Positions 11,001 through 62,799 of a stretch of DNA of 64,000 bases are shown here, in pieces. The DNA comes from Candidatus Woesearchaeota archaeon. GTDB lineage: Archaea; Nanobdellota; Nanobdellia; Woesearchaeales; GW2011-AR9. The translations under genes and the position numbers were made by a program. Under the pieces are notes generated by a model. The model saw only the letters and a list, made by a program, of their open reading frames with translations, made no database searches and was not told the DNA's origin. Within the stretch, counting starts at the first letter, position 1, and every line of letters starts with the position of its first letter. The stretch covers positions 1,406,260 to 1,470,259 of the forward strand of contig JBAYIU010000001.1 in the NCBI GenBank assembly GCA_041665465.1. The letters are read 5' to 3'.

Positions 11001-14000
11001 GATAACTTAGAGTTTGCCTATGGAGTTTATTCTGCTCCCGTAGCAGAAACTCCTGCTGTGACTTACCTATCCAACTTCAACGATACTTTTGATGGAGCGA
11101 CTATTAATACCAGTAGGTATACTGTTATTTCTGATGGGAATACTACCCTGTCTCAGAATAATAAAGTTATCATTAATGGTACTTCCGGTAGACCCATGAT
11201 GGGGATGAATAGCGCGGTAAACATCAGTAATAATTTCAGTGTTTCAGTCAAAGTAAGTAAATTTGACAATACCACTTATAGTATTATGGGAGCAGATCCT
11301 TATTCTTCTTTTGGGTTGTATATCGGTAACTTTTCTAATTCCAGTTATGATAAAGGCTTTGTTCGATGTAAACTTGCCATGAATTCTAGTGGTTATTTCT
11401 TGAATCATCCTAATTCCGGAAACACTGTTCCTGTCTCTTATGTAGAGAATGGAACTCTTACCTTGACATATTATGCTAATAATTATTCCAATAGTTGTAA
11501 TTATGATGGGAAAAATGTTTCTGGCATTAATGAGAGTTCTTCTTCTGGAGTATATTCTATCATTATGAATGCACAACCCCTTTCTTTAATCAACTTACAA
11601 TTTGATGACCTTAATTTGACGTATAATCCTGTAGCAGCAACTCCTGCTTCTGATAACTCTCCTAATGTTACTCTAGCCAATCCTGAAAATAATTATGTCA
11701 ACGATTCTGCGTCGAGAATTAATATCACTTTTGAATGTGATGCTACTGATGATTATCAACTAGTTAATGTCTCTTTATATTTAACTAATCCTGCTAATGC
11801 TTCTTTTGCTCTGAATCAAACCACCAATGTTGGTGGCACATCTAATTCAACTAGTTGGTTAGTAGAATTAGGTAATGGAAATTATACTTGGGGTTGTCTA
11901 GCATTCGATAATGCTTCTCAGTCCAGTTTCTCTACCCTCAATCACAGTATTCTAATAAACCATACTGTCTCGATATCTGATACCACTTATCCTACTGTAA
12001 CCCTAATCTCTCCTGCAAGCAGTTCTTACACAAACGCTAACAATAGTACCTTACCTTTTGTGTTCGGATACCAAGACAGTAATGATGCTACTGCTAACTG
12101 TACCTTATACCTGAACGGAGTAGCTAGAGGGAATAACGCTAGCACTAGAAACAACACTAACACTAATCTGTATTCTAGTACTACCTTCTCTGAAGGAAGT
12201 AATTCTTGGTACGTTAACTGTACTGATGCCGCTGGAAATACTAACGGAACTTCTACTTGGACTTTCATTGCTGATACTATTAATCCAACTGCTTCAATTA
12301 ATTCCATTAATACTCAGTATAGTGGTCAATGGACCAATACTCAAACTTTAAGTATTAATGCTACTGCTAGCGATGTTAACATTAATTATTGGAACCTTTC
12401 TGTATACAACAGTAATAGTTTAATTACTTCCAATCAGACTTCTGGAAGCAACCTTAATAATCTCGTTACTCTAAGTGTTTCTGCTGATGGAAATTATACT
12501 GTGAATTTAACCGTAACGGATCAAGTTAATAATTCCAACACTTCCACTTTCAATCTTCTAGTTGATACCTTTGCTCCTACTGTTAATTTGACTACTCCTC
12601 CTACAAATGTCTTAGTGTCCTTGGCATCAATAACTTCCACTTTCAATTTCACTGATGCTAGTTCTTCTAGCGCTAATTGCACTTTGTATGTGGGGGGGAT
12701 AGTTAAAGCAACTAACTCCTCTGTACTTAATTACACTAATACTGTGCTTACTGGTAGTTCTCTCTCTGAAGGGAACAATTCTTGGTATGTTAATTGTACT
12801 GATTTAGCAAGCAATACTGGAATCTCTGAAGTAAGAGTTATTCGAGTAGACACTACCACTCCCAGTGTCAGTGGTGCTAGTGTAAACGTAAGTCGAGCTA
12901 AATCTTCTACTTTGGTTGGAATCAATGTTACTGTAACCGATACCAATTTAGCCTGGGTTAAGGCTAATGGGATAAACATGAGTGCCAGTGGAAGCGACAT
13001 GTACAATCTTAGTGCAACTGCCTCTACTTTAGGATGTAGCGAAGGTACTTGTACTATTACTATAATTGCCAATGATTCTGCTAGAAATGCTAATAGTAGC
13101 GTTACTACCAGTTATGTGGTAGATGATACTGCTCCTGCACTGTTCTCTAACTCCACTTCTATCGCTACTGGATCAGTATACAATGCTTCATCTACTTATT
13201 ACTTCAATGTTACTTGGAATGAAACCGGAACCATTTCTAGTCCCTTATTAGAATTTAACAGTGCAAATTATACTATGACTACGGTTGGAAGCGGTGTTTA
13301 TTATTATACTTTTACCGATTTAGCAACTAGTACTTATTCTTACAAATTCATTGCTATAGATGATTCTGGGAATAGTAATGAGACTGCTAGTTATACTTAC
13401 GTTGTAGCTCAGGCAACTCCCTCTATCACCGCTTTACTTAATGGTACAGCTGCTAACCTAAGTGTCGCTTATCCCAATACCGTTAATGCTTCGGGAAGTA
13501 CCGACGCTGGAACCTTAGCTATTTATCGTAACGGGACATCTGTAACTAATGGGGCTGCATCTCTTTTAACTGTTGGATCTTATAGATATGATTTTAACGT
13601 TACTGGAAATCAGAATTATACTAACGCTTCTGCTACCTTGTATGCTACTGTGACTAAAGGTACTCCTGTCCTAACTTATTACTTAAATGGAAATACCACA
13701 AACTTAAGTGTTGTTTATCCTAATACCGTTAATGCTACTGCATCAACTACTGCAGGAACCTTAACCATTTACAGAAATGAAACTAATGTTACTAGTGAGA
13801 ATGGTGCAGCAACTTCTTTAGCTGTTGGATATTATCAATATGATTTCAATATAAGTGGTGGAGAGAATTATACTGATACTTCTACTACTTTGTATGCTAA
13901 TGTAACAATTGGAACTCCAACCTTGTCCCTGTACTTAAACGGAGCAGAAAACAATATGTCTGTAAACTACGGAACTAAAGTAAATGTTACTGGAACAGGT

Positions 14001-15179
14001 TCTGCATCTCAATTAAGTTATACCCTCTATCGTAACAATGTATCTACCCCTAACCCTGAAATTCTTTCCAATCTGTCTTACGGGACCAATTACACTTACC
14101 TCTTTAACACCAGCGGAAATGCCAATTACAGTGCTTCCTCGGTGTCTTACCAATTAGAAGTATTGTTGGGAGCGACTCAAGAATTAACCAATTCAACTGA
14201 TATTACTGTTACTAATACTACTACCGAAATTGTAATTCAGAATTCTAGTTTATCTCAAGTACGACTAAATTCTAGTATCGCTAGTACTACTCAAGTAAAT
14301 CTTTCTTTAGGTTTACTGATGGATCAGTCTACTGGAACTTTCAGTCTAGGAGAAAATAACTTCACCATGACTAGGGAAGTCTCTGGAGTGAACTATACTG
14401 TAGATATCCCGGCTAATACTAACTTGACTGGTGGAAGTGCTTGGGATGGTAAGTTTACTTTGCCCACTTTACCTGCTACTAGCGGATTTACTGCACCTTC
14501 TGGCAGTGTTAATTTAGTGATTGAAGTTGGTTCTACGGTGGAGATTAATCTCTCCGCTCCGGCAAAAATCGTTTTAAATGGAATGTCTGGAAAATCTGCA
14601 GGATGGTCCAGAAGTGGTACTATCACTGAGATAACCACTGTTTGTGATAATGCTACCTTGCCTACCAACATTAATACTACTAGTCCTAGAATCTGTTCTG
14701 TTGATAGTGGTAGTGATCTAATCGTTTGGACTTATCATTTCACTAACTTTGCTGCTTACACTCCCAGCGACGGATCTTCTAGTAGTTCTAGTAGCGGTGG
14801 AGGAAGTAGTAGTAGCAGCAGCACTCCCTCTTCTGCCCCAACAGAATACGCTACCGAGAACCCTGCTCCTAAATTGCCTTCAGTAACTAAAGCACCAACA
14901 GTGACTGCTCCGGTTGAAGTGCCAGTGGAAAATCCCGTTACGACTGTTCCTGAGACTGTTCCGGTTGAAGAGAATAAAGCTTTAGCGGGAATGGCTATCT
15001 CTGATCAACTTCGTTCAATCTTAACCGATTGGAGTAATTTATGGATTGGGTTAGTGGTGGTGGCTTTAATCGTTCTATCTCTATATCCTGTATTTAAGAG
15101 AGTTAAAAATAATCGTAACCGGGAAGAGATGCGAGAAGAATTAAGACAACAAGCGGCTAAGAAAATCAAACAGAAATAA
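2082..15179 (+). CDS. Giant (4365 aa) modular cell-surface protein: N-terminal signal/anchor helix, beta-helix-like Asn-rich repeats, lectin/LamG-like and Ig-like repeat modules, Ser/Thr/Pro-rich stalk, C-terminal TM helix with a basic cytoplasmic tail; saturated with N-x-S/T sequons (putative heavily N-glycosylated S-layer/adhesin-like protein)
   Basis: Single 13,098-nt ORF in AT-rich DNA (stop codons would be frequent by chance). AGGTG RBS 4 nt upstream. N-terminal 'LATLLVIFGILFSLQLY' helix. C-terminal 'SSSSSSSGGGSSSSSS...PTVTAPVEVPVENPVTTVPETVPV' stalk, then 'LWIGLVVVALIVLSLYPVF' and 'KRVKNNRNREEMREELRQQAAKKIKQK'. Modules recur 3-6 times. Confidence 0.88.
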   Translation: MKKKKKVVRKVHSKVRSKVGTQPSSPFLSVGLRGLATLLVIFGILFSLQLYSSESSLLKEGWTSLSQGFNGMGNLLTGAAVGVEEMQVQAGDCAGAYTGGNWTINSSVSCSNDVISVDGFVIIRNDSISPELVVNNFSLTTTGVYDLRGNSTNIVLAVPDLDSSTPSAYTNDWDANSGREFRIAMNESQNRIMVYVNNTDNSSFLYEFDLDDNPSTGGIVGAGDDFGIGYIGDFGGPLIGCYNSSDPQNNLILLSCDNSPLTCGNVDGYDGTFMGNFTVYCNNSGNAYEVVIDLTNASDGIWETKPVYALDPTDQSSPFYYTTFRNNSVLDSGINASGNLVLNNVTLNLENNFTISGGNLDIQKSNLTFRLTSNGSANFMISSGTAFANINHSAFTSNNSILRWKARITDGDYNLTNNVFSYVGYDNGDGIGYNYEVGFYFASPLGGLVYNNTFSNCGTIAEASCVSLVDGDGNSRNTGLNFSSNTIFSESAGLGTFYLSDYSNTSYTSGVFIGNNTFYGRFSVGGRNHIISGNYINKSLWLSSVEYNNTFINNEVRTELGFASINEQNTSYGSSIIIYSNGYGKMTWSGKDNIQMGLVSVDETFGLGNYFYVGNNLLGLNVGNGAGIDFSVLNTTASLEFYSLLWNNSVQLCVNNSGTLSGCVDCNSGNNCTYSNITGIMLANVTHFSNYSTNGSISVAESPAVTYLTNFTDTFTGTTINASRYTITQSGLNVSQSDKIIFNGSYEGATFFTNSFVDTNQSFVISINVAKFDQTEYVGILEDIGPLGGAPDDNEVGISIENDTTRILMCKLLKNDTGYFIEANGFTHPAETMQVNYTEGQLFSLNYSNIDGRYSCNYAGEMVSNTNSSAAGADFITFDAEAISQMNLQLDDLNFYYGTLVEEAPGSSYCGGAYTGGNWNINSSISCSNEAITVNGTLTVADNSVSANDVTNNFTSNSAANYNLRDNSTNIVLAVPDLDSSTPSAYTNDWDSNSSHEFRIAMNETQNRLIIFTNNTNNLDFAYSLNLDEGLSGGVFGPEYGDDFLVGYSGGPAIGCYNSSLLDLNVLPCDSSPVTCGNVSGYDSNYDGNFTVYCNNSGNAYEIVIDLANTGNGLWKNKPVYALDLNTSAFYYTTFRNSSILPVVAVGNLTLNNVTLNLQNNLTLSGGYLNIYDSNVTMMLTANNSANMDIRSSNVNLSGTTFSANNTNFKYIIAIQNGSYANNDFSDLALWVYPGTGGVFSNNVVSNCGGTPACIMAAIGYSNGFNFTGNNITATSGTAWATMVAGNNYTFSNNNIYGSASLFYGNVSVSNNLFNRSLSSTKEYGIDMIIFTNNIIFPGINSQLMGDWNDTLPDTFIYSNNYGKITWNLSNYTTPEPNPSSFGLGYNLYLNNNIVGVNAQLSLINFNTTASIEFYGLPWNNSVQLCNNISGTLSGCVDCNSGNNCTYSNITGIMLANVTHFSNYSTNGSTGVAEVGVSYCSGAYTGGNWNVSSSINCSNEVIPVNGIITVQDLSETAVTQFGASTGGIYDLRNNSTGVFDTDLSSSTPSAYTTDWDSDSNRVFKIAMNESSDTIQVYGSLPNVTALYSFDLDNNAATGTSVGGSGSSGMDLTFGYHADAGGVLMACYNSSVPGMYLTWFAASGSIVCGQTMDVGYDRNYTITFNSTASGGGNTFEFIINSTGSWTDKRVELMDGGNAYYYYTKFKTSGAVAGGRGNLTLNNVTLTLSGNLTINGILNVNRSFLYFGSNNTLFTSNIGASILINNSNVTSNGSIRYGIRSLGSDFTLENSYLNDLGAVVSSMTYPLKMEGTGGMIKNLSLGANQKMYGVQIAGSGISVLNSTFSGSANTINLLAGSYNNIIRGNNLSTGISYLNGGSSYNNLIAENTIAGVGNILIGQTSPAHLPYNNTYLNNNIQQVITTYVVNYTNYFIYNNSYGQIKWTKNNFSSSFGGNAVLVLDQTVFVRSNLLGVTPNMYMGNFNTTAELTFRNLLWNNSVQLCENVSGTLSGCVDCNSSNSCTYSNITGIMLANVTHFSNYSTNGSISVAGGLINNISVVKYAVNSTVNCDSNVTSYALFIINVTNNNAYNLTNIIVNDTPLCTNGLSLQQSLPIYTNFSSCNYASWTIANLGPGETYNITLNFSVSSSGNLTNTVQVWNATSQLVNTTGNITVTGSCGGESPGSNFLSNFVDTFDGATINTSVYNVTTVGNISISQNNKLVINGSSGYSFAATNSYVNVSNNFSVSVKVSKFDNTTYGILAGDPYSNFGVFISSFSGSSISSNFVRCNIAMNSSGYFLNVPNPGNTVPVSYVENATLTLNYHANNYTCDCTYGGQTISCGNESLPSTDYSILLFGGLISVSNLQFDDLNLTYNPVAAAETPAGPGLTIYNNGFFENFTSLNSTFYNNTLMIFSNPSIINGQLMMNKTTFEGTGQDYFYTTVDNVSTNSSWNISVWINLTNTTTNAQGSYLIEAGILIYNRTTYSSSLACEVGYGNGIGLILANYNNTHSSAPTYTSVSRSYGNLTYSYNNATGIFNCSLDDGTSVAGSTGSFGPGMGMGVVSQLSQIGAVAPNGSVTAYFDNFNYTYAVAATPAVTYLSNFTDDFAGTTLNTSRYTLDVGGTLGIAQNETVIVNGTDTGADSFAGTYTNLGVNTSRSFYVSVGVLNLTNTSAITSPNGYADVSLSLTDVGLDFLNFAVCKVRVKPTGIYLEDDNVQSVPISATNGTLVLSFNASNLNYTCAFAGDSLTSANLSGLGGNNSLDLVAEALNTSVWAEIDNLEFAYGVYSAPVETPAVTYLSNFTDSFTGVTINTSRYILDEGGNLSMAQNGTLVVNGTDSGFDSWEGVYTNLGVNTSDSFYISVDVNLTNTSAITNASGATRAYISLADVATELDFAMCVIYISPAEVALQDGEGGGHAMPLSITNGTLVMAFNVSSMNYSCQFAGQNLTHANLSSPSGNYSLFLESDALYTSTWAEMDNLEFAYGVYSAPVAETPAVTYLSNFNDTFDGATINTSRYTVISDGNTTLSQNNKVIINGTSGRPMMGMNSAVNISNNFSVSVKVSKFDNTTYSIMGADPYSSFGLYIGNFSNSSYDKGFVRCKLAMNSSGYFLNHPNSGNTVPVSYVENGTLTLTYYANNYSNSCNYDGKNVSGINESSSSGVYSIIMNAQPLSLINLQFDDLNLTYNPVAATPASDNSPNVTLANPENNYVNDSASRINITFECDATDDYQLVNVSLYLTNPANASFALNQTTNVGGTSNSTSWLVELGNGNYTWGCLAFDNASQSSFSTLNHSILINHTVSISDTTYPTVTLISPASSSYTNANNSTLPFVFGYQDSNDATANCTLYLNGVARGNNASTRNNTNTNLYSSTTFSEGSNSWYVNCTDAAGNTNGTSTWTFIADTINPTASINSINTQYSGQWTNTQTLSINATASDVNINYWNLSVYNSNSLITSNQTSGSNLNNLVTLSVSADGNYTVNLTVTDQVNNSNTSTFNLLVDTFAPTVNLTTPPTNVLVSLASITSTFNFTDASSSSANCTLYVGGIVKATNSSVLNYTNTVLTGSSLSEGNNSWYVNCTDLASNTGISEVRVIRVDTTTPSVSGASVNVSRAKSSTLVGINVTVTDTNLAWVKANGINMSASGSDMYNLSATASTLGCSEGTCTITIIANDSARNANSSVTTSYVVDDTAPALFSNSTSIATGSVYNASSTYYFNVTWNETGTISSPLLEFNSANYTMTTVGSGVYYYTFTDLATSTYSYKFIAIDDSGNSNETASYTYVVAQATPSITALLNGTAANLSVAYPNTVNASGSTDAGTLAIYRNGTSVTNGAASLLTVGSYRYDFNVTGNQNYTNASATLYATVTKGTPVLTYYLNGNTTNLSVVYPNTVNATASTTAGTLTIYRNETNVTSENGAATSLAVGYYQYDFNISGGENYTDTSTTLYANVTIGTPTLSLYLNGAENNMSVNYGTKVNVTGTGSASQLSYTLYRNNVSTPNPEILSNLSYGTNYTYLFNTSGNANYSASSVSYQLEVLLGATQELTNSTDITVTNTTTEIVIQNSSLSQVRLNSSIASTTQVNLSLGLLMDQSTGTFSLGENNFTMTREVSGVNYTVDIPANTNLTGGSAWDGKFTLPTLPATSGFTAPSGSVNLVIEVGSTVEINLSAPAKIVLNGMSGKSAGWSRSGTITEITTVCDNATLPTNINTTSPRICSVDSGSDLIVWTYHFTNFAAYTPSDGSSSSSSSGGGSSSSSSTPSSAPTEYATENPAPKLPSVTKAPTVTAPVEVPVENPVTTVPETVPVEENKALAGMAISDQLRSILTDWSNLWIGLVVVALIVLSLYPVFKRVKNNRNREEMREELRQQAAKKIKQK
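2529..2602 (+). repeat. 74-nt segment of the giant gene identical to 4980..5053 (codes LAVPDLDSSTPSAYTNDWD)
   Basis: Both copies read directly; perfect nucleotide identity. Confidence 0.85.
4015..4169 (+). repeat. About 155-nt near-identical intragenic module (WNNSVQLC..SGTLSGCVDCNSGNNCTYSNITGIMLANVTHFSNYSTNGS), copy 1 of 3; other copies about 6335..6489 and 8055..8216
   Basis: Near-identical nucleotide strings at three positions in the giant ORF. Confidence 0.8.
4980..5053 (+). repeat. Second copy of the 74-nt identical intragenic repeat (see 2529..2602)
   Basis: Direct comparison of the two segments. Confidence 0.85.
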
Positions 15180-15182
15180 TGT

Positions 15183-16910
15183 TTATATCTTTTTAATCAT
15201 GTAAGGTCCTTCTAAGCGATACCCTAACTTTCTGTAATAATTACGAACACCTATTCCGGAAATAATTACCATTCTAGTCTTAGAATATTTTCTAGCTATC
15301 TCTTCTGCTGTTTTCATCAACTTTTTACCCCATCCTCGATGTTGGACGGTTCCTTCTTCTCCGATAGCGGTAGCTGTGCCATACACATGTAATTCTCTGA
15401 TTAATGCAGAATTCTTAGTAATCTCTTTTCTTAACAAAGTTGAAGGGAAACGCATTCTGATAAATCCAATTAGTAAATCATTCTTGATGTCTTCTGCAGA
15501 AATGAAGAACTCTTCTCCTTGAGAGGCATCATATTCATTTACTTTAATCTTAATATCTTTCCACGAAATCTTATGTCCTTTTGGTTCTCGGCAACGGATA
15601 CAACGACAATTTACAGGATAGGTCTGATGCAGATATTGACGTAGATTGGTCATCTTTACTCCCGCTACGATCTGGGTGGAAGGAATGTCTCGCTGGATGC
15701 GCATGATTCTACAATATTCCGGAACGTACTTCTTAAACTTAAAGATCATCTCTGCTGCATCTTCTGCAACTAATGGTTTAAACTTCCCTTGTTGATATTC
15801 CTTATATAATTTGGTTCCTTTAGCTACCATGCATGGATATATCTTCAACATATCAGGACGATAGTTTTGGTCAGAGAATAGTCTAATCATCCCTTTAAGA
15901 TCTTCCTCTTTACTTAATCCAGGAAGTCCAGGCATATAATGTCCTGCAACTTTAAATCCGAGATCTTTCAATATTTGGATAGATTGTTGAGTCTGTAAGG
16001 TGGTATGTCCGCGTTGAATCCGCTGAAGAGTCTTATCATATACACTTTGTATCCCTAACTCTACTCTGGTACAACCCAGACGAAGCATTTCATTGCCTTG
16101 AATTAATAGTCCATAATCCGGGCGAGTCTCAATACATAAAGCCACTGCTTTGATGGTTGAAGTCTCGTTTCTCTTTTGTTCTTTGATCAAAGAAGAACGT
16201 CCTTTCAGAGCTAACATCTTTTTCTTTACTCTTTTAATCCTGGTTGTATCATTAGGCGGTGCAGGAAGTTCAAAGAACTGTTTGAATTTAAGATAATTTA
16301 ATTCTCCTCGATAATAAAATTGTTGAGAGAAATCGTTCATGGCCTTGAATGCAAATTTAATAAACTTTTCTTGATATGGTTTAGGAAAACTTGGAAAGGT
16401 TCCACCCATAACTATCAGTTCTACTTTTTCGCAGTTGTGTCCCAACAAAATGTATTGTTCTAATCGGTTCATCACTTGCAGGTATGGATCATAATCATTA
16501 TGGATTCCGCGCATGGTAGCGGGTTCAGTTCCGGTATAGGATTGAGGAACGTTGCCGAAAGCACTTTTTACTCCTCCTGGACACATGATACATTTTCCGT
16601 GAGGACAAGGGAAAGGTTGGGTCATAATAGCGACGGGAGCTACTCCGGAAAGACTTCTTACTGGTTTACTTAGCAAGAAAGGTCTTAGTTTTACTGCTTC
16701 TTGTTTATTAGCATGTAGAAGAATCTGGATATTAGTGGGCACTTCTTTTAAATTATATTTTCTGGATAGGTCTCTCTTAATCTGATCGAACTCTTTTAGA
16801 GATAGGTTTCTTCTAAGTAGGATCTTAAGTAGTTCGGGGTAAAATTCAGACATGAGTAGTAGAAAAGATAGTTTGAATAAAAGGTTTTCTGTGGTTAGAC
16901 AAAATTTCAT
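15183..16910 (-). CDS. elp3: Elongator Elp3 homolog (radical SAM plus GNAT acetyltransferase; tRNA wobble-uridine modification)
   Basis: 'CPHGKCIMCPGG...SYTGTEPATMRGIHNDYDPY' matches the Elp3 radical-SAM region. C-terminal GNAT 'QHRGWGKKLMKTAEEIA'. True start may be the internal Met (MSEFYPELL, 16853). Converges with the giant gene, stop to stop 3 nt apart. Confidence 0.9.
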   Translation of the reverse strand: MKFCLTTENLLFKLSFLLLMSEFYPELLKILLRRNLSLKEFDQIKRDLSRKYNLKEVPTNIQILLHANKQEAVKLRPFLLSKPVRSLSGVAPVAIMTQPFPCPHGKCIMCPGGVKSAFGNVPQSYTGTEPATMRGIHNDYDPYLQVMNRLEQYILLGHNCEKVELIVMGGTFPSFPKPYQEKFIKFAFKAMNDFSQQFYYRGELNYLKFKQFFELPAPPNDTTRIKRVKKKMLALKGRSSLIKEQKRNETSTIKAVALCIETRPDYGLLIQGNEMLRLGCTRVELGIQSVYDKTLQRIQRGHTTLQTQQSIQILKDLGFKVAGHYMPGLPGLSKEEDLKGMIRLFSDQNYRPDMLKIYPCMVAKGTKLYKEYQQGKFKPLVAEDAAEMIFKFKKYVPEYCRIMRIQRDIPSTQIVAGVKMTNLRQYLHQTYPVNCRCIRCREPKGHKISWKDIKIKVNEYDASQGEEFFISAEDIKNDLLIGFIRMRFPSTLLRKEITKNSALIRELHVYGTATAIGEEGTVQHRGWGKKLMKTAEEIARKYSKTRMVIISGIGVRNYYRKLGYRLEGPYMIKKI

Positions 16911-33107: not shown

Positions 33108-34583
33108 TTAACTCTTCACTTCAGGCGTAACTTCCTTCTCAGCATTTTTCTTCGCTCTTTCTGCTCTTCGTAGATCTCTTTCTTGCTTCTTTATCTCGTT
33201 AGCTTGTTTCTTAGCTTCTTTAGCTGCTTCTTTTTCTTCTTCTTCTTTATTATGAAGATGGTCTTTCCATCGAAGTAAGGTGTAATTAACCGGGTTTTTG
33301 ATATGGGCACATAAGCTGTCTGGCTTACACACTCCAAACGATTTATAGTAACCTTCATTGTTACAGTTAGGTGGAAGTTTCTCTCCCGGTTTGAAATAAC
33401 GTAACTGTGATTCGATATAATTGTCCCTAAGAGGATTAGCTTTATTTTTGTCATGGTTCCATTCTAACAAAAATCCTTCTAATTCTTTTTTGCTCCATCC
33501 AATCTTGCCTAAGAAATTACTCCAACAGAATACTGCCCGTTTCTTTCCATCTTCCATTCCGTTCAATAACCCTTTCATACAGGGAGGAAAGAAATCCTCT
33601 CTAATCGGAGAAGTAACCATCGTTTCTTCGTTCTTATTTTGGTTCTCAATCTTGATTCTATCTCGAACTTCTTTTTCTACTACTGTTTTAGTTTGGAAGT
33701 CTAATGCTGAGGTAAGCAAGTTTCTGGCACTTGGTCCAGAAACGTTTCGGTCCATAAACTTAAACATAGGGGTAAGAATCTTGTCCGGATCAGCCATAGA
33801 TCGCTCAAATTCCATCACTCGTTCTGGATCGATGGGCAAACTAACTAATCCCGATTTCTCATGCAAAGAATAAGGCATACGATACAAATGACGTGGGGCG
33901 ATCAGGATAGTATCAATCTCTAAGAACTTATCCACGTTTAGTTTAGCAACCTTATCACCATACTGGTTCTTTTCATAACCCGTTATATCTTCCGGTGGCA
34001 GTTCTACTTTATCTTTGATCTTACTGAAATCGTTGTTTTCAAAAGCAAGAATTCTTTTTCCTAACTCTTCTTTGATGTTCTCTTTGATATAAGCAGCAAT
34101 CTTTCTGGCTGCTTCCGGAAAGAGAGTTTTAATCTGGATAGATCCTACTTGGCTGGGAAATGCTTCAAAAGGTACTCCAATATGAAAACCTTTATTGCCC
34201 GAAAATTTTATGGAATAATCTTTTACTTCACATCTCTTAAGAAATTTGATAATCAAATCCGCACTAATCTTGCTGTAATCGATAAATTTACAATCTATAT
34301 CTAGTACTAAGTCCCATCCTCGGCGAAGTTCTTCCATCTCTTTCTTATTTGAAGTGCTGCTTAAACTTAAGGGATTATCCCATATTTCTTCGCTACAGTG
34401 AAACGAAGTTACTCCTTTAAGAGCTAATTCTAAAATCTCTTTAGGATATGTCAAGATATCTGGGCGTTTACCAAAGCTTTCTCCATATCTGACACTGAAT
34501 TCTTTATTCTGAGCATGTTCTACTATCTCTTGCTGAATGTCCTTTCTTTTGTAGAAGCGTAGGCATGTGCCTTTGTCTATCAT
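33108..34583 (-). CDS. priS: Single-chain DNA primase: PriS catalytic domain fused to a PriL C-terminal Fe-S-type domain
   Basis: PriS motifs 'WDLVLDIDCK' (DxD) and 'FSGNKGFHIGV' (SGxRGxH). C-terminal region 'FFPPCMKGLL...FLGKIGWSKKELEGFLLEW...PNCNNEGYYKSFGVCKPDSLC' parallels p58C/PriL-CTD (FPPCM...FLKGIGL..FW...C...C). Lys/Glu-rich tail. Confidence 0.75.
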   Translation of the reverse strand: MIDKGTCLRFYKRKDIQQEIVEHAQNKEFSVRYGESFGKRPDILTYPKEILELALKGVTSFHCSEEIWDNPLSLSSTSNKKEMEELRRGWDLVLDIDCKFIDYSKISADLIIKFLKRCEVKDYSIKFSGNKGFHIGVPFEAFPSQVGSIQIKTLFPEAARKIAAYIKENIKEELGKRILAFENNDFSKIKDKVELPPEDITGYEKNQYGDKVAKLNVDKFLEIDTILIAPRHLYRMPYSLHEKSGLVSLPIDPERVMEFERSMADPDKILTPMFKFMDRNVSGPSARNLLTSALDFQTKTVVEKEVRDRIKIENQNKNEETMVTSPIREDFFPPCMKGLLNGMEDGKKRAVFCWSNFLGKIGWSKKELEGFLLEWNHDKNKANPLRDNYIESQLRYFKPGEKLPPNCNNEGYYKSFGVCKPDSLCAHIKNPVNYTLLRWKDHLHNKEEEEKEAAKEAKKQANEIKKQERDLRRAERAKKNAEKEVTPEVKS

Positions 34584-34910: not shown

Positions 34911-35009
34911 AGTGGAGAAAATTAAGGACTTCATTTATAAACGTTTCGATGGTATTTTTACTACAGCACAGAGAAAGTATTTAAATCTCGGGGTATTCCT
35001 TAATAACTA

Positions 35010-36203
35010 ATGCCCATTCTTAGGAAAGATACTCCCGAACATCAGATTTACAAAGTCTTAGAACATTGGCAGCCAACTGATGAAATTATGATGGTTAAAG
35101 AGCTAACTAACCCTAAGAAAAAATTATCTATCCTCTTTGCTTATCTCTATGATCTGGTTAAGAAAGAGTATAAATCCTTTCCCACTCGTAAAAATGGAAA
35201 AAATCCTTTTGTTCATCCTCTTAACATAGTATGGGATCTAAGGAAAGCCAAAGTTAAAAATGAAGTAACGATTTGTGCAGCGTTAATCCATGACTTAATT
35301 GAGGAGAAGGTAGATCTTTATAAAAGACTGAAACATCTTTCTGAAACACCGGATGGAGTAAAAAAGTTAGATAAGTATGAGGATAAGTTGTGGGTAAAAT
35401 TTGAGAAAGATCTTAAAGAATTCAGTGAAGATGCTCAGTATCATTCTTCTGTTAAACAGATTTTAGAGGTAGTTTTTCTTTTAACTCGACACAAAAGACA
35501 TTTCTATTATCGTTCCATTTCTTCTCTTTTTAATCGAGAGGATGACGATACCAAAGAAATGGCCATCCAAGTTAAACTAGCGGACAGGATTCATAATCTT
35601 CAATCTTTAGACTGCTTTACTGAAGAGGATAGGATGTACCAATGTTTCAAAACTTTATTTATTCTTAATAACACTAAAGCTTATCTTAAGAAAAAATACG
35701 GGCAAAATAGTAATCCAGATAAAGCAGTCCATCCTACTGAAAAATTGTTTAAAAAATGTTGTAAGGCAACGTATGATGCTTTTCTGATGATTGAGAGAAT
35801 GTCTCTGGCTAAAGGGATTACTCCCATCGAATCGATGCTACAATTGGCGTTTATGAAGTATGCTTGGGAAAGATCTGGGCTGGACCAAGTTACTTCTACT
35901 AATCTTAAAGAAACTCATCCTATGCGTTTGTATCAGGGAATCATTAGGAAATATGATTCTCGATTACACCAAGAATGGAGCCAATTTAAACAGATGAAAC
36001 GGTTAGAATCAGAATATTGTCAAAAGTTCTTTGCTGATTACAATTTTACTTCTGAACAAATAGAGGCTTTGATTAATTATAAAGATGCTTATGCTCTTAA
36101 AGAAGTGGTCGCTTTATTGTTGTATGATCCGGATTATGTCGTGAAAGGATTTGGGTGTGCGGGATTGTGTCGTAGAGGATTTGTGTGTATGAAGAAAAAG
36201 TAA
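35010..36203 (+). CDS. RelA/SpoT-family HD-domain protein ((p)ppGpp hydrolase-like) with an uncharacterised C-terminal extension
   Basis: 'RKNGKNPFVHPLNIVWDL...ICAALIHDLIEE' and 'KLADRIHNLQSL' mirror SpoT 'RKSGEPYI.HP...AALLHDVIEDT' and 'KLADRTHNMRTL'. No synthetase domain seen. Confidence 0.65.
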   Translation: MPILRKDTPEHQIYKVLEHWQPTDEIMMVKELTNPKKKLSILFAYLYDLVKKEYKSFPTRKNGKNPFVHPLNIVWDLRKAKVKNEVTICAALIHDLIEEKVDLYKRLKHLSETPDGVKKLDKYEDKLWVKFEKDLKEFSEDAQYHSSVKQILEVVFLLTRHKRHFYYRSISSLFNREDDDTKEMAIQVKLADRIHNLQSLDCFTEEDRMYQCFKTLFILNNTKAYLKKKYGQNSNPDKAVHPTEKLFKKCCKATYDAFLMIERMSLAKGITPIESMLQLAFMKYAWERSGLDQVTSTNLKETHPMRLYQGIIRKYDSRLHQEWSQFKQMKRLESEYCQKFFADYNFTSEQIEALINYKDAYALKEVVALLLYDPDYVVKGFGCAGLCRRGFVCMKKK

Positions 36204-36349
36204 GATTTTTCCAGAGGATTTATAAATCAGCTCTGTTTCTAATATAAAATACACAAATATAAGAAACGTAAACCGTTTTAAAATATGGGGAATCCCGACT
36301 GGGCTTTCCGTGCTCAAGAATAATTTTCTTAGCACCTGTGCAGAAAATC

Positions 36350-36399: not shown

Positions 36400-37845
36400 A
36401 TGAACTTTGAAGAACTAAACTTGGCTCCGCAGTTATTAAAAGCGGTGCAATATCAGGGGTATACTGAACCTACTGACATTCAACAAAAGACTATCCCTTT
36501 AATCCTAGACGGAAAAGATATAGTCGGACAATCAGCTACCGGTAGTGGAAAAACTGCTGCCTTTGGGTTACCTATATTAGGAAAGATTAAACCTGGTCAG
36601 GGATTACAATTCATTGTGTTGACTCCTACCAGAGAATTATGTGTGCAAGTAGCAGAAACTCTTACTGCTCTAAGTAAATTCATGCCCATGAACATCGTTA
36701 AGATTTATGGTGGAGTAGGAATGGGTCCACAGGTTGATGCAGCTAGATATGCAGATATCGTGGTTGGTACTCCTGGAAGAACTTTAGATCACTTGAATCA
36801 TAATACTTTAAATTTAAGCAAGGTAAAATTCTTAGTTATCGATGAAGCTGATAAGATGTTTGAGATGGGTTTTATTGAAGATGTAGAACAGATTCTTAGT
36901 TATATACCTTCTCCGCGTCAAACCTTATTGTTTAGCGCTACCATGTCTGATGTGGTTTTGAAGTTGGTAGAGCGTCATTTGAACCATCCGGTAAACATTC
37001 GTACTGTGATGCATGTTGATAGAAGCCTATTGAAGCAGGTTTATTACAATGTTGACCAAAGAGAAAAGTTTTCTTTGTTGTTACACTGTCTTAAAAATAA
37101 GACCCCTGGACTAGCGTTAGTGTTCTGTGCTACTCGACAAGAAGTTGATCTGTTAAACCGGAATCTGAAGATGCAGGGAATTAAAGTCATGGCTATTCAT
37201 GGTGGATTAACTCAAAATAAGCGTGAATATGCTTTGAAACAACTTCGTGATGAAAATATTGACGTACTTGTAGCTACTGATGTTGCTGCTCGTGGATTAG
37301 ACATTAAGAATGTTTCTAACGTCTATAACTACGATGCTCCTAAGACTTCTGAAGAATACGTGCATCGTATTGGAAGAACTGCTCGTGCCGGTGAAAAAGG
37401 TGAAGCAGTTACTTTACTTAGTCAGAGGGACTTTGACAATTTTAGAAGAATTGAAAGTGATCGCACTTTACAAATTAAAGAAGAATCCTTGCCCGAATAT
37501 GAGAAAGTTCGTTTCGTAAGAGAAGTAGAACGTCGTGGTGGACGGTTTGGTGGCGGAGATCATTTTGGTAACCGTGGACCTCAACATGGAGGAGTAGCTA
37601 CTAGTGCTTATGGTTCTCGTAGTAATCAAGGACCTCGAGAAGGCGGCTTTAATCGCGGTTCTCGTTCTGAAGAAGGAGCTTCTCGTGGAGGAGCTGGCGG
37701 ATTCCATCGTGGACCAAGACCAGAAGGCAGTGGTGGGTTCCATAGAGGTCCTAGACCCGAGGGTAGTGGCGGGTTTAATCGTGGTCCTCGATCTGAAAGT
37801 GGAGCTAGACCTGAACGAAGAAGTCGAGAAATGACTCGACGTTAG
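36400..37845 (+). CDS. DEAD-box ATP-dependent RNA helicase with Gly/Arg-rich (RGG-like) C-terminal repeats
   Basis: Q motif, 'GSGKTAAF', 'DEAD' (VIDEADKM), 'SAT', 'HRIGRTAR'. C-terminal 3x 'GGFHRGPRPEGSG'. Confidence 0.95.
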   Translation: MNFEELNLAPQLLKAVQYQGYTEPTDIQQKTIPLILDGKDIVGQSATGSGKTAAFGLPILGKIKPGQGLQFIVLTPTRELCVQVAETLTALSKFMPMNIVKIYGGVGMGPQVDAARYADIVVGTPGRTLDHLNHNTLNLSKVKFLVIDEADKMFEMGFIEDVEQILSYIPSPRQTLLFSATMSDVVLKLVERHLNHPVNIRTVMHVDRSLLKQVYYNVDQREKFSLLLHCLKNKTPGLALVFCATRQEVDLLNRNLKMQGIKVMAIHGGLTQNKREYALKQLRDENIDVLVATDVAARGLDIKNVSNVYNYDAPKTSEEYVHRIGRTARAGEKGEAVTLLSQRDFDNFRRIESDRTLQIKEESLPEYEKVRFVREVERRGGRFGGGDHFGNRGPQHGGVATSAYGSRSNQGPREGGFNRGSRSEEGASRGGAGGFHRGPRPEGSGGFHRGPRPEGSGGFNRGPRSESGARPERRSREMTRR

Positions 37846-37846
37846 G

Positions 37847-38800
37847 TTATTTTTGTTCTTTTACTTTTTCTTTAGAGGGAAATTCTTTAATTTCGTAATC
37901 CTTTGAGATAGATCTTTCGACATTCACTCCCGATTCTCTTAGAATAATAGCTAGATGCATTGTAATTGATTTTAAGTACACTCTGGGTAATTTCTGAATA
38001 ATAGAAATTATCTCTTGCCAATTCTCATTATTCCTGTTTAATGGAATATCCAAAAACAACTCTTTTGATTGGTCATATCTCTTAAGTTCATCTAAAGAAC
38101 GAGCGAAATAGAAATCTTTAACCTCTACCCCCAGGGAGATTGGTCCTAACTTTCTTATATCTTGTATAGCTGTAAAATTTATGTCTTCTAAGCTTTCACA
38201 ATAAGCATCACATAGAATTGGGTCGTGTATTTTCCGCATTTTATTAAAGAACTCTTTTCTAAAAGAAATACTTCTTGCAAGATTAATTAAGAATTCTTCT
38301 TTAAACGGTTCAGCCGAGTATTTCTCCCCTTCAATATTCTCGACCAATCTATTTCTTAGATATCTTGCAATTACAATTTTCTTATCAATTTTAATTATAT
38401 CTGGGTTTTCATTAAAGATGTTCTTCTTTGAAGCACCTATCCCGGGCCATACCTCAAGAATCATCTCTTCCCCATTATAATAAAGATTGAATACAAATTT
38501 TGTCTTAACTAAACTATGAACAAATGGCACGTAATCTTTACGTTCTCTCTCAATTATTTTCGCAATATCCTTAATAGTAAATTTACCTAAGAAGAAAGGT
38601 AGATTCATATTATCTCCCTTAGAGAAGCGGATCGCTACTTCATCATTATCCTTGAATCCATTCTTGGCTAATTTATCGATTATTTGCTGTTGATTATCCT
38701 CTTCTGAAAATATCACAAAAGAACGATGAAACAAGTTATTCTGTGAGAAATAGTATAATCCAAAAAGCTTCCACCCTAATCTATCAGGAGAATATTCCAT
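37847..38800 (-). CDS. Hypothetical protein (317 aa)
   Basis: ORF. Confidence 0.4.
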   Translation of the reverse strand: MEYSPDRLGWKLFGLYYFSQNNLFHRSFVIFSEEDNQQQIIDKLAKNGFKDNDEVAIRFSKGDNMNLPFFLGKFTIKDIAKIIERERKDYVPFVHSLVKTKFVFNLYYNGEEMILEVWPGIGASKKNIFNENPDIIKIDKKIVIARYLRNRLVENIEGEKYSAEPFKEEFLINLARSISFRKEFFNKMRKIHDPILCDAYCESLEDINFTAIQDIRKLGPISLGVEVKDFYFARSLDELKRYDQSKELFLDIPLNRNNENWQEIISIIQKLPRVYLKSITMHLAIILRESGVNVERSISKDYEIKEFPSKEKVKEQK

Positions 38801-38860: not shown

Positions 38861-39793
38861 TTACTTCCGATTTAATATCCATTTAATTCTTTCTTCTAAT
38901 TCTTCAGGACCAAACCTGCTTCCAGTAAATCTAGGAGAACCACCAATTGTATTAGAACCATTCCAACGATTAGTCTTTGTAATTCTGTCTCCTTCTAATT
39001 TGTTTAATCCGCGGTATAACTTAGGGATATCATACTTCACCCACACTGATTTTCTTCCCAAGACATAACGATGACCACTTCCATTTTGTGAGCCTAACCA
39101 GGCTGCAAAAGCGTTAATCCCATCGTTGTACATAGCCATACGAGAAGCAGGACCGGTTTCATGGACCATGGTCCATCCCTCTCCACCACCAATTTTCTCA
39201 TACTGGCCTACTAAGGGTAATTTTTCTCCTCCGTTGATTACATGAGCAGAAATTCTACTGAATACTGCTTCCATAATGGTTTTCATTCCGGCTTCGCTCA
39301 TTCCAGAAAGCCTATTCTCAAATCGGGCTTGATTATATGGTTCAAAGATCCAAGCCATTCTTTGTCTCATCTCTGTTTCTCCAAAAGGATAGGCTCCGGC
39401 AGTAGAGTCTAACCTGTCTTCACAATAAACTAAACGATTTATAGGGGGAGAAGCATGGCCAATGACCATGTCATGGTTCATTAATAACCATGCTGCTAAG
39501 CAAGTATCTTCATCACAATCATTCACATAAATCCTAGCCGTAGGAATTCCTCCTTGTTTGAAGGTGTCAAAAAGGTCCATGTTAATCTCTAAATGTACTT
39601 GATCAGAAGTAGATCGGGTAGCAAACCGGTCTACTCCGGTATGATGATCAAAATTAGCGTAAGGTCCGCGAGGGTCTTTATGGGTGGGAGCAGATACAAA
39701 TCCGTCTAAGGCAATAGAATATGGAGGTTTCTGGCTCTTAAATTCATTCCATTTATAGGTCTTTCCCGGCTCAATGTATAGTTCTATTGTCAT
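38861..39793 (-). CDS. Hypothetical protein (310 aa), compositionally GC-richer than neighbours
   Basis: ORF. Contains 'NFDHHTG', 'NDCDEDTC', 'IGGGEGW' but no confident family. Confidence 0.4.
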   Translation of the reverse strand: MTIELYIEPGKTYKWNEFKSQKPPYSIALDGFVSAPTHKDPRGPYANFDHHTGVDRFATRSTSDQVHLEINMDLFDTFKQGGIPTARIYVNDCDEDTCLAAWLLMNHDMVIGHASPPINRLVYCEDRLDSTAGAYPFGETEMRQRMAWIFEPYNQARFENRLSGMSEAGMKTIMEAVFSRISAHVINGGEKLPLVGQYEKIGGGEGWTMVHETGPASRMAMYNDGINAFAAWLGSQNGSGHRYVLGRKSVWVKYDIPKLYRGLNKLEGDRITKTNRWNGSNTIGGSPRFTGSRFGPEELEERIKWILNRK

Positions 39794-53533: not shown

Positions 53534-55459
53534 ATGCAATACAAAAATCTTACTTTAGATCCGTTTCAAGAAGATGCCATTAAAGCTATTGAAGCAAACA
53601 ACTCAGTAGTTGTTTCTGCTCCTACTGGAAGCGGTAAGACCTTAATTGCTGACTTTATCATCGAGAAGCATCGAAATGATGATAAACGAATAATCTATAC
53701 TGCTCCCATCAAGGCTCTTTCTAACCAGAAATATCGAGATTTCTGTAAGGATTATGGTGAGGACAGGATAGGATTAATGACCGGAGATATTGTCATCAAC
53801 CCCAGTGCTAAAGTTTTGATCATGACTACCGAGATCTATCGTAACATGGTAGTTTCTAACGATGAAGAAGTTAAAGATGTAGCTTACGTCATTTTTGATG
53901 AGATTCATTTTATTAATGATATTGAACGAGGATATGTTTGGGAAGAATCAATAATCTATAGTCCTGAAACGGTACGTTTTCTTTGTCTCTCTGCTACTAT
54001 CCCCAATGCTGAAGAATTTGCTCGCTGGATTAAAGCGATTAAACATCATTCCGTAAAAACTGTCGTCTCTGTTACTCGTCCTGTTCCATTACAGATGCAA
54101 TTTTATGATTATGAACAAGGGTTAACCACTTTAGAAAAAGTAAAAGCAGTTTTGGATGATCCAGAATATCGAAGAATGCGCAGTAAGAAGACTAAAAATA
54201 GAGTAAGGGTTCCTGCTCCAGATCATACTGCTTTAATCAAAGAGATAGGTAATGACAAGTTACCTTGCTTGTTCTTTATCTTTTCCAGAAATGAGTGCCA
54301 ACTTAAATCTCAAGAACTAGCTCGTAAAAACCTTTTTCCTAAAGATTTTAACTTACTTCAACGTTTTAATAAACGATTAGAAGATGCTCCTAGCGAGATC
54401 AGTCGTTTAACCTCTACCAAGATTCTTAGAGAAACCTTACCTCAGGGAATAGCGTTTCATCATGCTGGACTTTTACCAATCATAAAAGAAGCATTAGAAG
54501 AGTTCTTTGCAGAAGGAAAGATTAAAGTTCTTTATGCCACAGAAACTTTTGCTGTTGGTATCAACATGCCAGCTAAAACTGTAGCTTTTGATTCTTTACG
54601 CAAGTTTGATGGATACAATTTTAGAAATCTTACTACCAAAGAATTCTTCCAAATGGCCGGAAGAGCAGGTAGAAGAGGAATAGATAAGATTGGTTATGCT
54701 ATTAGTATGATCTTCCGTCCAAGTTTCAGTTATGCTGAAGTTAAACATATCACTTCTAAAGATGTTGAGCCAATTAAATCTCAATTTAAATTGTCTGTAA
54801 ATACTGTTCTTAACTTGATTAACCAACATACCCCAGAACAGATTGAACATATCTTACGTTTGAGTTTCTGGAGTTATCAACAGTTCGGAGAGAATTATGC
54901 TAAAGTTCCAGCTAGAGTATTATTGGCTAGGTATAATAGTATTGTTAGAAAATTAGAGTTGTTTGGATATATCCAAGACGGGACTATTACTCCTAAGGGG
55001 ATGTTCTCAGCTAAGATCTTTGCCGACGAAATATCAATCGGAGAAATATTTGCTACAGAGATTGCTGAGTCTTTGGATGAGTATCAAATTTTGTTAGTCT
55101 TAGCAGGATTAGCTTACGAAACCAGAGATATAGACGAGTTTAAGAACCAACATGTCGATGACCGTTTACGCAAGTTACGTAAAATTTTACATGATCATGA
55201 ATACCTTTCTAAAGAGAAGAAGTTTAAGGAATTAGAGAAAATCTCTGCTTTAGTTTATCCTGTTTTTTCCGGAGAAAGTTTCTTTAAAGTGTTAGAACAA
55301 ACTAATCTTCAGGAAGGAGATTTGATTCGGTTCTTCTTACAGATCCTGGATCGTATTGGTCAGATTAAGAAAGCTACTACAGATTATCGAGTGAAGAATA
55401 AGATGGCTAACTGTGAAGGTATCCTTAAGAAAGCCCTGGAAGGGATATATTTAGTGTAA
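53534..55459 (+). CDS. Ski2-like/Hel308-family DExH helicase
   Basis: 'APTGSGKT', 'DEIH', 'SAT', 'FHHAGL', 'QMAGRAGRRG'. Confidence 0.8.
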   Translation: MQYKNLTLDPFQEDAIKAIEANNSVVVSAPTGSGKTLIADFIIEKHRNDDKRIIYTAPIKALSNQKYRDFCKDYGEDRIGLMTGDIVINPSAKVLIMTTEIYRNMVVSNDEEVKDVAYVIFDEIHFINDIERGYVWEESIIYSPETVRFLCLSATIPNAEEFARWIKAIKHHSVKTVVSVTRPVPLQMQFYDYEQGLTTLEKVKAVLDDPEYRRMRSKKTKNRVRVPAPDHTALIKEIGNDKLPCLFFIFSRNECQLKSQELARKNLFPKDFNLLQRFNKRLEDAPSEISRLTSTKILRETLPQGIAFHHAGLLPIIKEALEEFFAEGKIKVLYATETFAVGINMPAKTVAFDSLRKFDGYNFRNLTTKEFFQMAGRAGRRGIDKIGYAISMIFRPSFSYAEVKHITSKDVEPIKSQFKLSVNTVLNLINQHTPEQIEHILRLSFWSYQQFGENYAKVPARVLLARYNSIVRKLELFGYIQDGTITPKGMFSAKIFADEISIGEIFATEIAESLDEYQILLVLAGLAYETRDIDEFKNQHVDDRLRKLRKILHDHEYLSKEKKFKELEKISALVYPVFSGESFFKVLEQTNLQEGDLIRFFLQILDRIGQIKKATTDYRVKNKMANCEGILKKALEGIYLV

Positions 55460-62602: not shown

Positions 62603-62799
62603 GTATTCCTCTTTTTGGGGAGAAGTAGTTGTTTTAAGTTTATAAAAATTTGGAAAAGCCACTGAACAGAGTGGTTTGTCCAGTGGCACTAACCTTCCAA
62701 ACCCTAAATCTTTTGGGAATCAGCCGTTCTAGAGAAGCCACTCCCGCACTGGACAACCTCAGCTAGAATATATAAAGGGGTTCTGCTCTTAGGTTTATT

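Follow-up and report, generated by a model that had tools for sequence, protein, structure and literature searches.

It has long been asked whether alarmones of the (p)ppGpp type are in use in archaea, and a single gene of a Candidatus Woesearchaeota archaeon bears on this question. The gene lies in a stretch of 64,000 nucleotides (nt), called the window below, that spans positions 1,406,260 to 1,470,259 of contig JBAYIU010000001.1 (assembly GCA_041665465.1). An earlier note, made from the letters of this DNA, had described the product as a RelA/SpoT-type HD-domain protein in an archaeal context that carries two hydrolase blocks and no synthetase domain. ORF calling on the window gave an ATG-to-TAA open reading frame (ORF) of 397 amino acids (aa) exactly at 35010–36203 (+). 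Both hydrolase blocks are present in the translation as quoted: it holds TRKNGKNPFVHPLNIVWDLRKAKVKNEVTICAALIHDLIEEKVD at aa 59–102 and KLADRIHNLQSLD at aa 189–201, and within those stretches the blocks read RKNGKNPFVHPLNIVWDL...ICAALIHDLIEE (aa 60–99) and KLADRIHNLQSL (aa 189–200). Judged from sequence profiles and predicted structures, the presence of a RelA/SpoT-type HD hydrolase domain was confirmed. The ORF, the termini of its homologues and the structural model together describe a complete but extended hydrolase of this type, without a synthetase.

The homologue search covered 5.8 billion proteins and returned more than 250 full-length homologues of 380–400 aa, at 47–92% identity, whose N- and C-termini coincide. 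Agreement of this extent goes well past what coincidence could produce. Because the query alone falls under the Pfam cut-offs, its place among the RelA/SpoT homologues (RSHs) rests on family-level evidence, which was decisive. On its own, the query gave a local match to NCBIfam TIGR00691 (spoT_relA) with an E value of 9e-9, and its phmmer matches in the PDB (E 1e-4 to 0.5) were confined to the N-terminal regions of SpoT and Rel and to small alarmone hydrolases (SAHs). A profile built from 32 family members matched 18 PDB sequences at E <= 1, all of them RSH hydrolase domains or SAHs. These matches included SpoT (7qps, 7qpr), Rel (7oiw, 1vj7, 6s2t, 8acu), Mesh1 (3nr1 and 5vxa, both at E 4e-5, and 3nqw) and SAHs (4yf1, 7qoc, 7p1y). 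Compared by hhalign with residues 1–390 of E. coli SpoT, the family profile aligned with a probability of 97.2% (E 4.7e-11) over SpoT residues 37–165, that is, over the hydrolase domain. The Pfam model HD_4 (PF13328) was matched by 29 of the 32 members, as against 14 for the generic HD model, and nine of ten divergent, deep-branching members exceeded the HD_4 gathering score, with up to 42.5 bits. The profile search proposed earlier as a check (HD_4 and RelA_SpoT) was thus positive for the family profile and its members, and below the Pfam cut-offs for the query alone. Placement in a generic HD clade, the outcome that had been named as speaking against kinship with RelA/SpoT, was not obtained, since the family profile and the confident Foldseek matches gave RSH-type HD proteins only.

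An AlphaFold2 (AF2) model of the full protein (pLDDT 89.4) contains 18 helices and no sheet, and its pTM of 0.91 shows the predicted protein as one compact globule. When this model was compared with the PDB using Foldseek, SpoT and Rel came out on top with a probability of 1.00, and SAHs were matched with TM scores, normalised to the SAH, of 0.59–0.73 (0.73 for 7p1y and 6yvc, 0.62 for 7qod). The neighbours in a viral library were phage SAHs of 150–230 aa, with TM scores of up to 0.75. No Pfam match to the synthetase domain (PF04607), TGS or ACT was found in the 397-aa protein; no part of the SpoT synthetase domain was aligned, and nothing aligns to SpoT past query residue 218. The lack of a synthetase domain is therefore borne out by the missing PF04607 match, by the all-helical model and by a SpoT alignment limited to residues 37–165. 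The same observations rule out a degenerate synthetase in the C-terminal half, and the C-terminal region modelled in isolation also had no RSH fold match.

The catalytic residues were located by alignments to SpoT, Rel and Mesh1, through which RelSeq and TtRel numbering was transferred, and their conservation was counted in an alignment of 186 full-length members from the archaeal and bacterial clades. The first hydrolase block, R60-K61-N62-G63...H69-P70...H94-D95-x-x-E98-E99, occupies aa 60–99 (35187–35306, +). The second, K189-L-A-D192-R193-I-H195-N196 (35574–35597, +), provides the fourth metal ligand and a base contact. Residues R60, K61, H69, H94, D95, E98 and E99 correspond to R44, K45, H53, H77, D78, E81 and D82 of RelSeq, and K189, D192, R193, H195 and N196 to its K141, D144, R145, H147 and N148. 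All 186 sequences have H94, D95, K189, D192 and H195; R60, H69 and R193 are conserved in 185 and N196 in 184. The metal tetrad H...HD...D (H69, H94, D95, D192) is accordingly kept in 185–186 sequences, and the HD dyad, whose absence on careful alignment had also been raised as grounds for rejection, is intact and 99–100% conserved. At the acidic pair, position 98 is Glu in 171 members and Asp in 15, and position 99 is Glu in 177 and Asp in nine.

The guanine of ppGpp is contacted in TtRel by R43, R44, S45, N150, T153 and M157 (PMC10083569). The equivalent positions in the family are R60, K/R61, N/D62, N196, S/T/C199 and F/Y203, and the Asp that marks the ppApp-specific hydrolase Aph1 is absent. 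In alignment, the positions that contact the base resemble their counterparts in (p)ppGpp hydrolases and not those in (p)ppApp-specific Aph1. The idea in the earlier note that the protein may hydrolyse a different nucleotide messenger is speculative. Overall, the conservation pattern indicates an active enzyme with a predicted nucleotide pocket like that of (p)ppGpp-capable hydrolases.

We compared the protein with four groups of known enzymes. SAHs (Mesh1, Mesh1-L/XccSAH, PaSAH, C. glutamicum RelH, TdActApo2 and phage SAHs) have the same hydrolase-only helical HD fold (TM 0.59–0.75 normalised to the SAH) and the common motifs R-K-x-G...HP...HD-x-x-E-[D/E]...KLADRxHN, and like the query they have no synthetase, TGS or ACT domain. 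However, SAHs are single-domain proteins of 160–220 aa (PMC9293644), whereas the 397-aa query has an N-terminal extension, an insertion and a C-terminal region of ~130 aa, and carries E-E where SAHs have E-D. The available part of the supplementary text to an SAH census (Jimmy et al., 11 subfamilies) contained no 'Woesearchaeota' or 'archaeon' entries and none from DPANN. Long RSHs (E. coli SpoT, RelSeq 1VJ7, TtRel 6S2T and A. baumannii SpoT 7QPR) gave the best sequence and Foldseek scores and have equivalent metal ligands and guanine-contact positions, but they also carry synthetase, TGS, helical, zinc-finger and ACT domains, all of which the query lacks. Its all-helical C-terminal half could not be aligned to their alpha/beta synthetase domain. 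The protein would thus work like an SAH, yet it fails the criterion of a small single domain, and it is without everything that defines a long RSH.

Aph1 (PMC10083569) is, like the query, a stand-alone HD_4-type hydrolase. It has D24, together with R119, at the place of the first base-stacking Arg, where 185 of the 186 family members have R60; it also lacks two helices and is tetrameric, whereas the query has extra helices. Class I cyclic-nucleotide phosphodiesterases (PDE9/10, TbrPDEB1) are all-helical members of the HD superfamily of ~330 aa, with a pocket built by extra helical subdomains. Foldseek matches to them were weak (probability 0.2–0.7, TM 0.23–0.32, E > 0.2), the motifs of the query are RSH-type, and no PDEase Pfam match was found; an enzyme similar to cyclic-nucleotide phosphodiesterases was thereby ruled out.

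What sets the family apart lies around and within the hydrolase core. Two additions had been missed by the earlier description, namely an N-terminal extension of ~55 aa and an insertion of ~30 aa between the HD and KLADR blocks. The N-terminal extension (aa 1–55; 35010–35174, +) contains invariant W20 and Y54 and falls outside the region aligned to SpoT and Rel. The insertion is visible as an alignment gap against canonical RSHs (aa 100–156; 35307–35477, +) and is modelled as helices at aa 114–138 and 142–159. In the query, 85 aa separate the acidic pair from the first aligned position of the KLADR block, versus 53 aa in RelSeq, and this region is expanded further in a 514-aa bacterial member, P0151. 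The insertion is followed, within the HD core, by a family signature that reads LLTRHKRxFYYRSIS; in the query it is LLTRHKRHFYYRSIS (aa 157–171; 35478–35522, +), with T159, K162, Y166 and Y167 invariant. The rest of the HD-fold core, as delimited by Foldseek and alignments, comprises aa 197–265 (35598–35804, +) and includes an invariant FKNLFILNNxK motif (K214, N220). Its boundary at aa 265 is approximate, with Foldseek alignments to SAHs of 160–230 aa spanning 200–250 query columns.

The remainder of the protein had been described as a unique C-terminal extension of about 200 aa. Its uniqueness was upheld, but ~70 of those residues belong to the SAH-type HD fold, and the family-specific part is shorter, covering approximately aa 266–397 (~130 aa). 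Profile searches, the model and conservation delimit within it a helical C-terminal module of ~115 aa (aa 266–379; 35805–36146, +). Several module residues are nearly invariant among the 186 members (K283 in 182, Y315 in 179, E333 in 185, K358 in 184, D359 in 185 and Y372 in 185); they are as conserved as the catalytic residues, which points to a functional role of the module. An exhaustive search of 1.84 billion representative proteins with a profile of aa 266–397 gave 46 matches. All were either fragments or proteins of 367–514 aa with the region at the C-terminus, so the region never occurs alone or fused elsewhere, and it is present in every full-length family member. No Pfam domain was matched in the C-terminal region, and Foldseek found no PDB fold neighbour for it when it was modelled separately (pLDDT 76, best E 2.9). 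Duplication of the HD core as its origin was ruled out (hhalign probability 1.3%). A nucleic-acid-binding role was not supported by charge, as the net charge ranges from -10 to +5 across members.

The protein ends in GFGCAGLCRRGFVCMKKK, which contains C383, C387 and C393. This C-terminal tail (aa 380–397, C383-x3-C387-x5-C393; 36147–36200, +) was defined by alignment and is modelled with low confidence (pLDDT 51–68). A Cys-rich tail had been noted before, and it is indeed a feature of the query; it is not one of the family as a whole, the Cys triad being found in 70 of 186 homologues. A distance tree places tail-bearing members to either side of the midpoint root, which is the deepest split of the family. 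The tail is therefore ancestral; one large sub-clade of Woesearchaeota and the duplicated bacterial paralogues have lost it, and the idea of a recent sub-clade feature was overturned. H320 is the sole other Cys or His column that tracks the triad, being present in all tail-bearing members and in 58% of tail-less ones. The tail is thus a candidate Cys3-His metal site, for which the alignment gives a hint that H320 may be the fourth ligand, albeit a weak one, given the phylogenetic relatedness of the sequences.

The archaeal setting of the gene was borne out by its neighbours in the window, where Pfam searches identified a single-chain primase, Rpo11/L and a DEAD-box helicase. Other archaeal-type genes in the window encode a threonyl-tRNA synthetase with an archaea-specific editing domain, Elp3, Cdc6/Orc1 and a PolX-PHP polymerase, and the GC content is 34–39%. 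An identical protein is already on record, on a 352-kb metagenomic contig. Named archaeal members of the family all bear the label Woesearchaeota, Nanoarchaeota or Nanoarchaeia. When GTDB species representatives were scanned, at least 31 loci were recovered, and among those listed the labels were the same or 'uncultured Methanosarcinales', on contigs with the same synteny. The title 'uncultured Methanosarcinales archaeon' is found on Woesearchaeota-type contigs (loci L012, L013, L017–L023, L027, L029, L031, L034, L036, L039 and L041) and is probably a placeholder or erroneous taxonomy.

Synteny was counted on clustered ORFs of the window and the archaeal loci, 34 loci in all. The recurrent order is Primase(-) Rpo11(-) HD(+) TatD(-) ... 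deoxyhypusine synthase(+). Within 4 kb of the HD gene, TatD is found in 23 of the 34 loci, Rpo11 in 14 and the primase in 12. With few exceptions, the HD gene and its neighbours lie on opposite strands; TatD is convergent with the HD gene, and the 3' ends of the two often overlap. In the window itself, there is no TatD gene within 4 kb of the HD gene. No conserved operon partner was found, the neighbours being on the opposite strand, and none of the flanks examined contained a synthetase gene. Toxin-antitoxin, phage or defence neighbours were not seen in the 34 loci. The association with the genes for primase, Rpo11, TatD and deoxyhypusine synthase resembles a conserved core-genome order, and the HD gene is a vertically inherited housekeeping gene that is common in Woesearchaeota. 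One archaeal metagenome-assembled genome (MAG) has two HD-family genes around a convergent TatD (HD+ TatD- HD+; L012, 4001–7256).

The family is not confined to archaea. Members that form a clade of their own were found in MAGs with the label Myxococcota or Oligoflexales. Their contigs reach 3.2 Mb, the neighbouring genes are plainly bacterial (gyrB, recR, dnaX, recA, ychF, ruvX), and these members in genuine bacterial contexts rule out an archaea-only family. Since the tree parts the bacterial from the archaeal clade cleanly, the complete architecture likely moved between the domains once, in an ancient transfer. In one lineage, Myxococcota-labelled contigs (L007/L008, 6842–9140) carry tandem paralogues of 391 and 379 aa that overlap by 17 nt, both without the Cys tail and preceded on the same strand by Pirin and Exo_endo_phos genes. 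This arrangement suggests a heterodimeric version of the enzyme.

Earlier surveys found archaeal RSHs to be sporadic and attributed them to horizontal transfer (PMC3153485). A survey of DPANN archaea reported 'RelA/SpoT' annotations in 41.7% of Woesearchaeota MAGs, for which a bacterial origin was inferred, and in 69% of Diapherotrites (PMC8407392). RSH-like genes in Woesearchaeota are therefore not new, as that survey had already reported them. We found no named member of the query's family in Diapherotrites. The earlier note called (p)ppGpp-type hydrolases uncommon in archaea, which is true of cultured archaea (PMC3153485) and does not extend to Woesearchaeota, where the family is widespread.

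For the reaction itself, we propose that a metal ion, Mn2+ or, as in Aph1, Mg2+, would be held by H69, H94, D95 and D192, and that the E98–E99 pair would activate a water molecule. A purine nucleotide would be held by R60/K61, N196, S199 and F203, and its ribose 3'-pyrophosphate, or a 2'/3'-phosphate, would be removed. The most likely substrates would be (p)ppGpp and/or (p)ppApp, cleaved to GDP/GTP or ADP/ATP and pyrophosphate. The C-terminal module would complete, gate or regulate the active site, or mediate dimerisation or oligomerisation, and where the tail is present, as in most lineages, it would be stapled by the predicted Cys3(-His) site. A role in dimer formation is considered because SAHs are obligate dimers and because the tandem bacterial paralogues suggest a heterodimer.

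In our view the protein is, with moderate probability, a hydrolase-only, Mn-dependent 3'-(pyro)phosphohydrolase of the (p)ppGpp/(p)ppApp type, extended in architecture and housekeeping in character. The parts of this reading differ in strength. The protein is very probably an active RSH-type hydrolase with a unique extension, while the proposal that (p)ppGpp/(p)ppApp is its physiological substrate is tentative, and we place it slightly below an even chance. Several observations weigh against the reading. Taken alone, the query scores 20.6 bits with HD_4, below the gathering cut-off of 27.2, and 21.6 bits with the generic Pfam HD model, for which the cut-off is 22. In place of the canonical E-D, the family overwhelmingly has E-E as its catalytic pair, with Glu and not Asp as the second acid. 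Fold and pocket leave the substrate unproven because the characterised SAHs are promiscuous. Finally, (p)ppGpp went undetected in H. volcanii and S. acidocaldarius (PMC8646023).

The promiscuity of SAHs leads to the possibility that the protein is a Mesh1-like 2'/3'-phosphatase that acts on a cofactor or metabolite (NADPH, CoA, pAp or similar) and serves cofactor homeostasis or the salvage of nucleotides in a symbiont with a reduced genome. Mesh1 and XccSAH dephosphorylate NADPH (PMC9765508), and MESH1 is reported to be a CoA 3'-phosphatase (PMC13221220). A hydrolase in organisms without a known synthetase recreates the situation of Mesh1, the gene is inherited vertically among housekeeping genes, and de novo nucleotide synthesis is often missing in DPANN (PMC8407392). 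However, the residues R60, K61, N196 and S/T199, which contact base and phosphate, agree with their equivalents in (p)ppGpp hydrolases, and the bacterial members sit in MAGs labelled Myxococcota. Myxococcota are expected to use the stringent response. On balance, we regard the cofactor-directed function as unlikely.

A bolder proposal retains the alarmone substrates and supposes that Woesearchaeota run a genuine alarmone pathway. The hydrolase would then break down nucleotides resembling (p)ppGpp or (p)ppApp that an unrecognised archaeal synthetase makes or that are acquired from a partner cell, and the Cys3(-His) module would be a metal or redox switch that gates hydrolysis. We regard this combination as speculative and quite unlikely. 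If it were true, such a metal- or redox-gated module would represent a regulatory solution unrelated to the TGS and ACT domains of bacterial Rel and SpoT.

Alternatively, the enzyme would confer immunity to, or detoxify, alarmone-type toxins of foreign origin, such as (p)ppApp synthetase effectors, exported alarmone synthetases or toxSAS enzymes that pyrophosphorylate the tRNA CCA end. SAHs counteract both toxSAS and (p)ppApp toxins (10.1101/575399; PMC10083569), exported alarmone synthetases exist (PMC12691689), and episymbionts are in cytoplasmic contact with partner cells. The genomic evidence argues against such a role, as the gene is monocistronic, vertically inherited and placed in a core housekeeping region, with no toxin, toxin-antitoxin-like, phage or defence neighbour in the 34 loci, and the Aph1 signature is absent. 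We consider an immunity function improbable.

The neighbourhood also bears on a possible nucleic-acid 3'-end phosphoesterase, which would act on 3'-phosphate, 3'-pyrophosphate or 2',3'-cyclic phosphate ends of RNA or DNA in partnership with TatD or the bacterial Exo_endo_phos protein. The frequent proximity of TatD, with its overlapping 3' end, would fit, as would the Exo_endo_phos gene that immediately precedes the tandem bacterial paralogues in the same orientation, and SAHs are able to strip pyrophosphate from tRNA 3' ends (10.1101/2021.04.30.441581). Yet TatD and the HD gene never share a strand, and so are not co-transcribed; TatD is missing from the vicinity of the HD gene in the window, and the other bacterial lineage has unrelated neighbours. 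Furthermore, the net charge of the module is +5 in the query and -10 to +4 in bacterial members, and is thus not consistently basic. A 3'-end function is in our judgement highly improbable. A generic HD phosphohydrolase unrelated to RSHs, or a catalytically dead scaffold, is effectively refuted: although the query scores slightly higher with HD than with HD_4, both below cut-off, the PDB matches of the family profile at E <= 1 are exclusively RSH-type, HD_4 is matched by about twice as many members as generic HD, homology to SpoT has 97% probability, and the catalytic residues are strictly conserved.

As an extended RSH-type hydrolase, the protein is solidly classified and its chemistry is expected; its value lies in the unique module and in providing a concrete enzyme for the question of archaeal alarmones. 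The family offers a clonable enzyme with which 3'-phosphorylated nucleotides can be probed in DPANN archaea or their partners. Its conserved ~130-aa region, which has no detectable relatives, suggests that an alarmone-hydrolase pocket can be built or regulated in a manner not yet described. Our literature search turned up no account of the architecture, the C-terminal module or the Cys tail, and most database entries of the family are annotated 'hypothetical protein' or 'HD domain-containing protein'.

Transcription signals were read directly from the sequence. A TATTTAAA box (34978–34985, +), whose last nt is 25 nt 5' of the ATG, sits in a 75-nt divergent intergenic region shared with the Rpo11 gene. 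The spacing of archaeal TATA boxes relative to the start follows an established rule. The box is probably an archaeal TATA promoter that gives rise to a leaderless mRNA. A T5 run begins 3 nt past the TAA stop (36206–36210, +) and is a plausible archaeal oligo-T terminator. The next gene downstream, encoding the DEAD-box helicase (start 36400), has an A/T-rich box of its own. The predicted TATA box and T-run fit a leaderless, monocistronic archaeal transcript of the HD gene.

Several other genes of the window merit mention. No tRNA genes (ARAGORN) and no Rfam families at the gathering threshold were found in the 64 kb. Upstream of the HD gene, a 491-aa protein (33108–34583, -) matches DNA_primase_S and DNA_primase_lrg, as a fused PriS-PriL with a Lys/Glu-rich C-terminal tail; 12 of the 34 loci show synteny between this fused primase gene and the HD gene. 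The DEAD-box helicase (36400–37845, +) ends in tandem GGF(H/N)RGPR(P/S)E repeats that form an RGG-like low-complexity tail, which seems unusual for an archaeal helicase. It is followed by two adjacent ORFs without Pfam match, of 317 aa (37847–38800, -) and 310 aa (38861–39793, -), the first of which occupies the position usually taken by TatD in related genomes. A giant ORF of 4365 aa (2082–15179, +), which matched no Pfam family at E <= 1e-4, may presumably be a very large surface protein of the kind reported in DPANN and CPR (candidate phyla radiation) organisms. The window also encodes an Elp3-like radical-SAM/GNAT protein (15183–16910, -), a Ski2-like helicase with a DSHCT domain (53534–55459, +) and PolX with a PHP domain (60893–62689, -), a fairly rich information-processing set for a small-genome archaeon.

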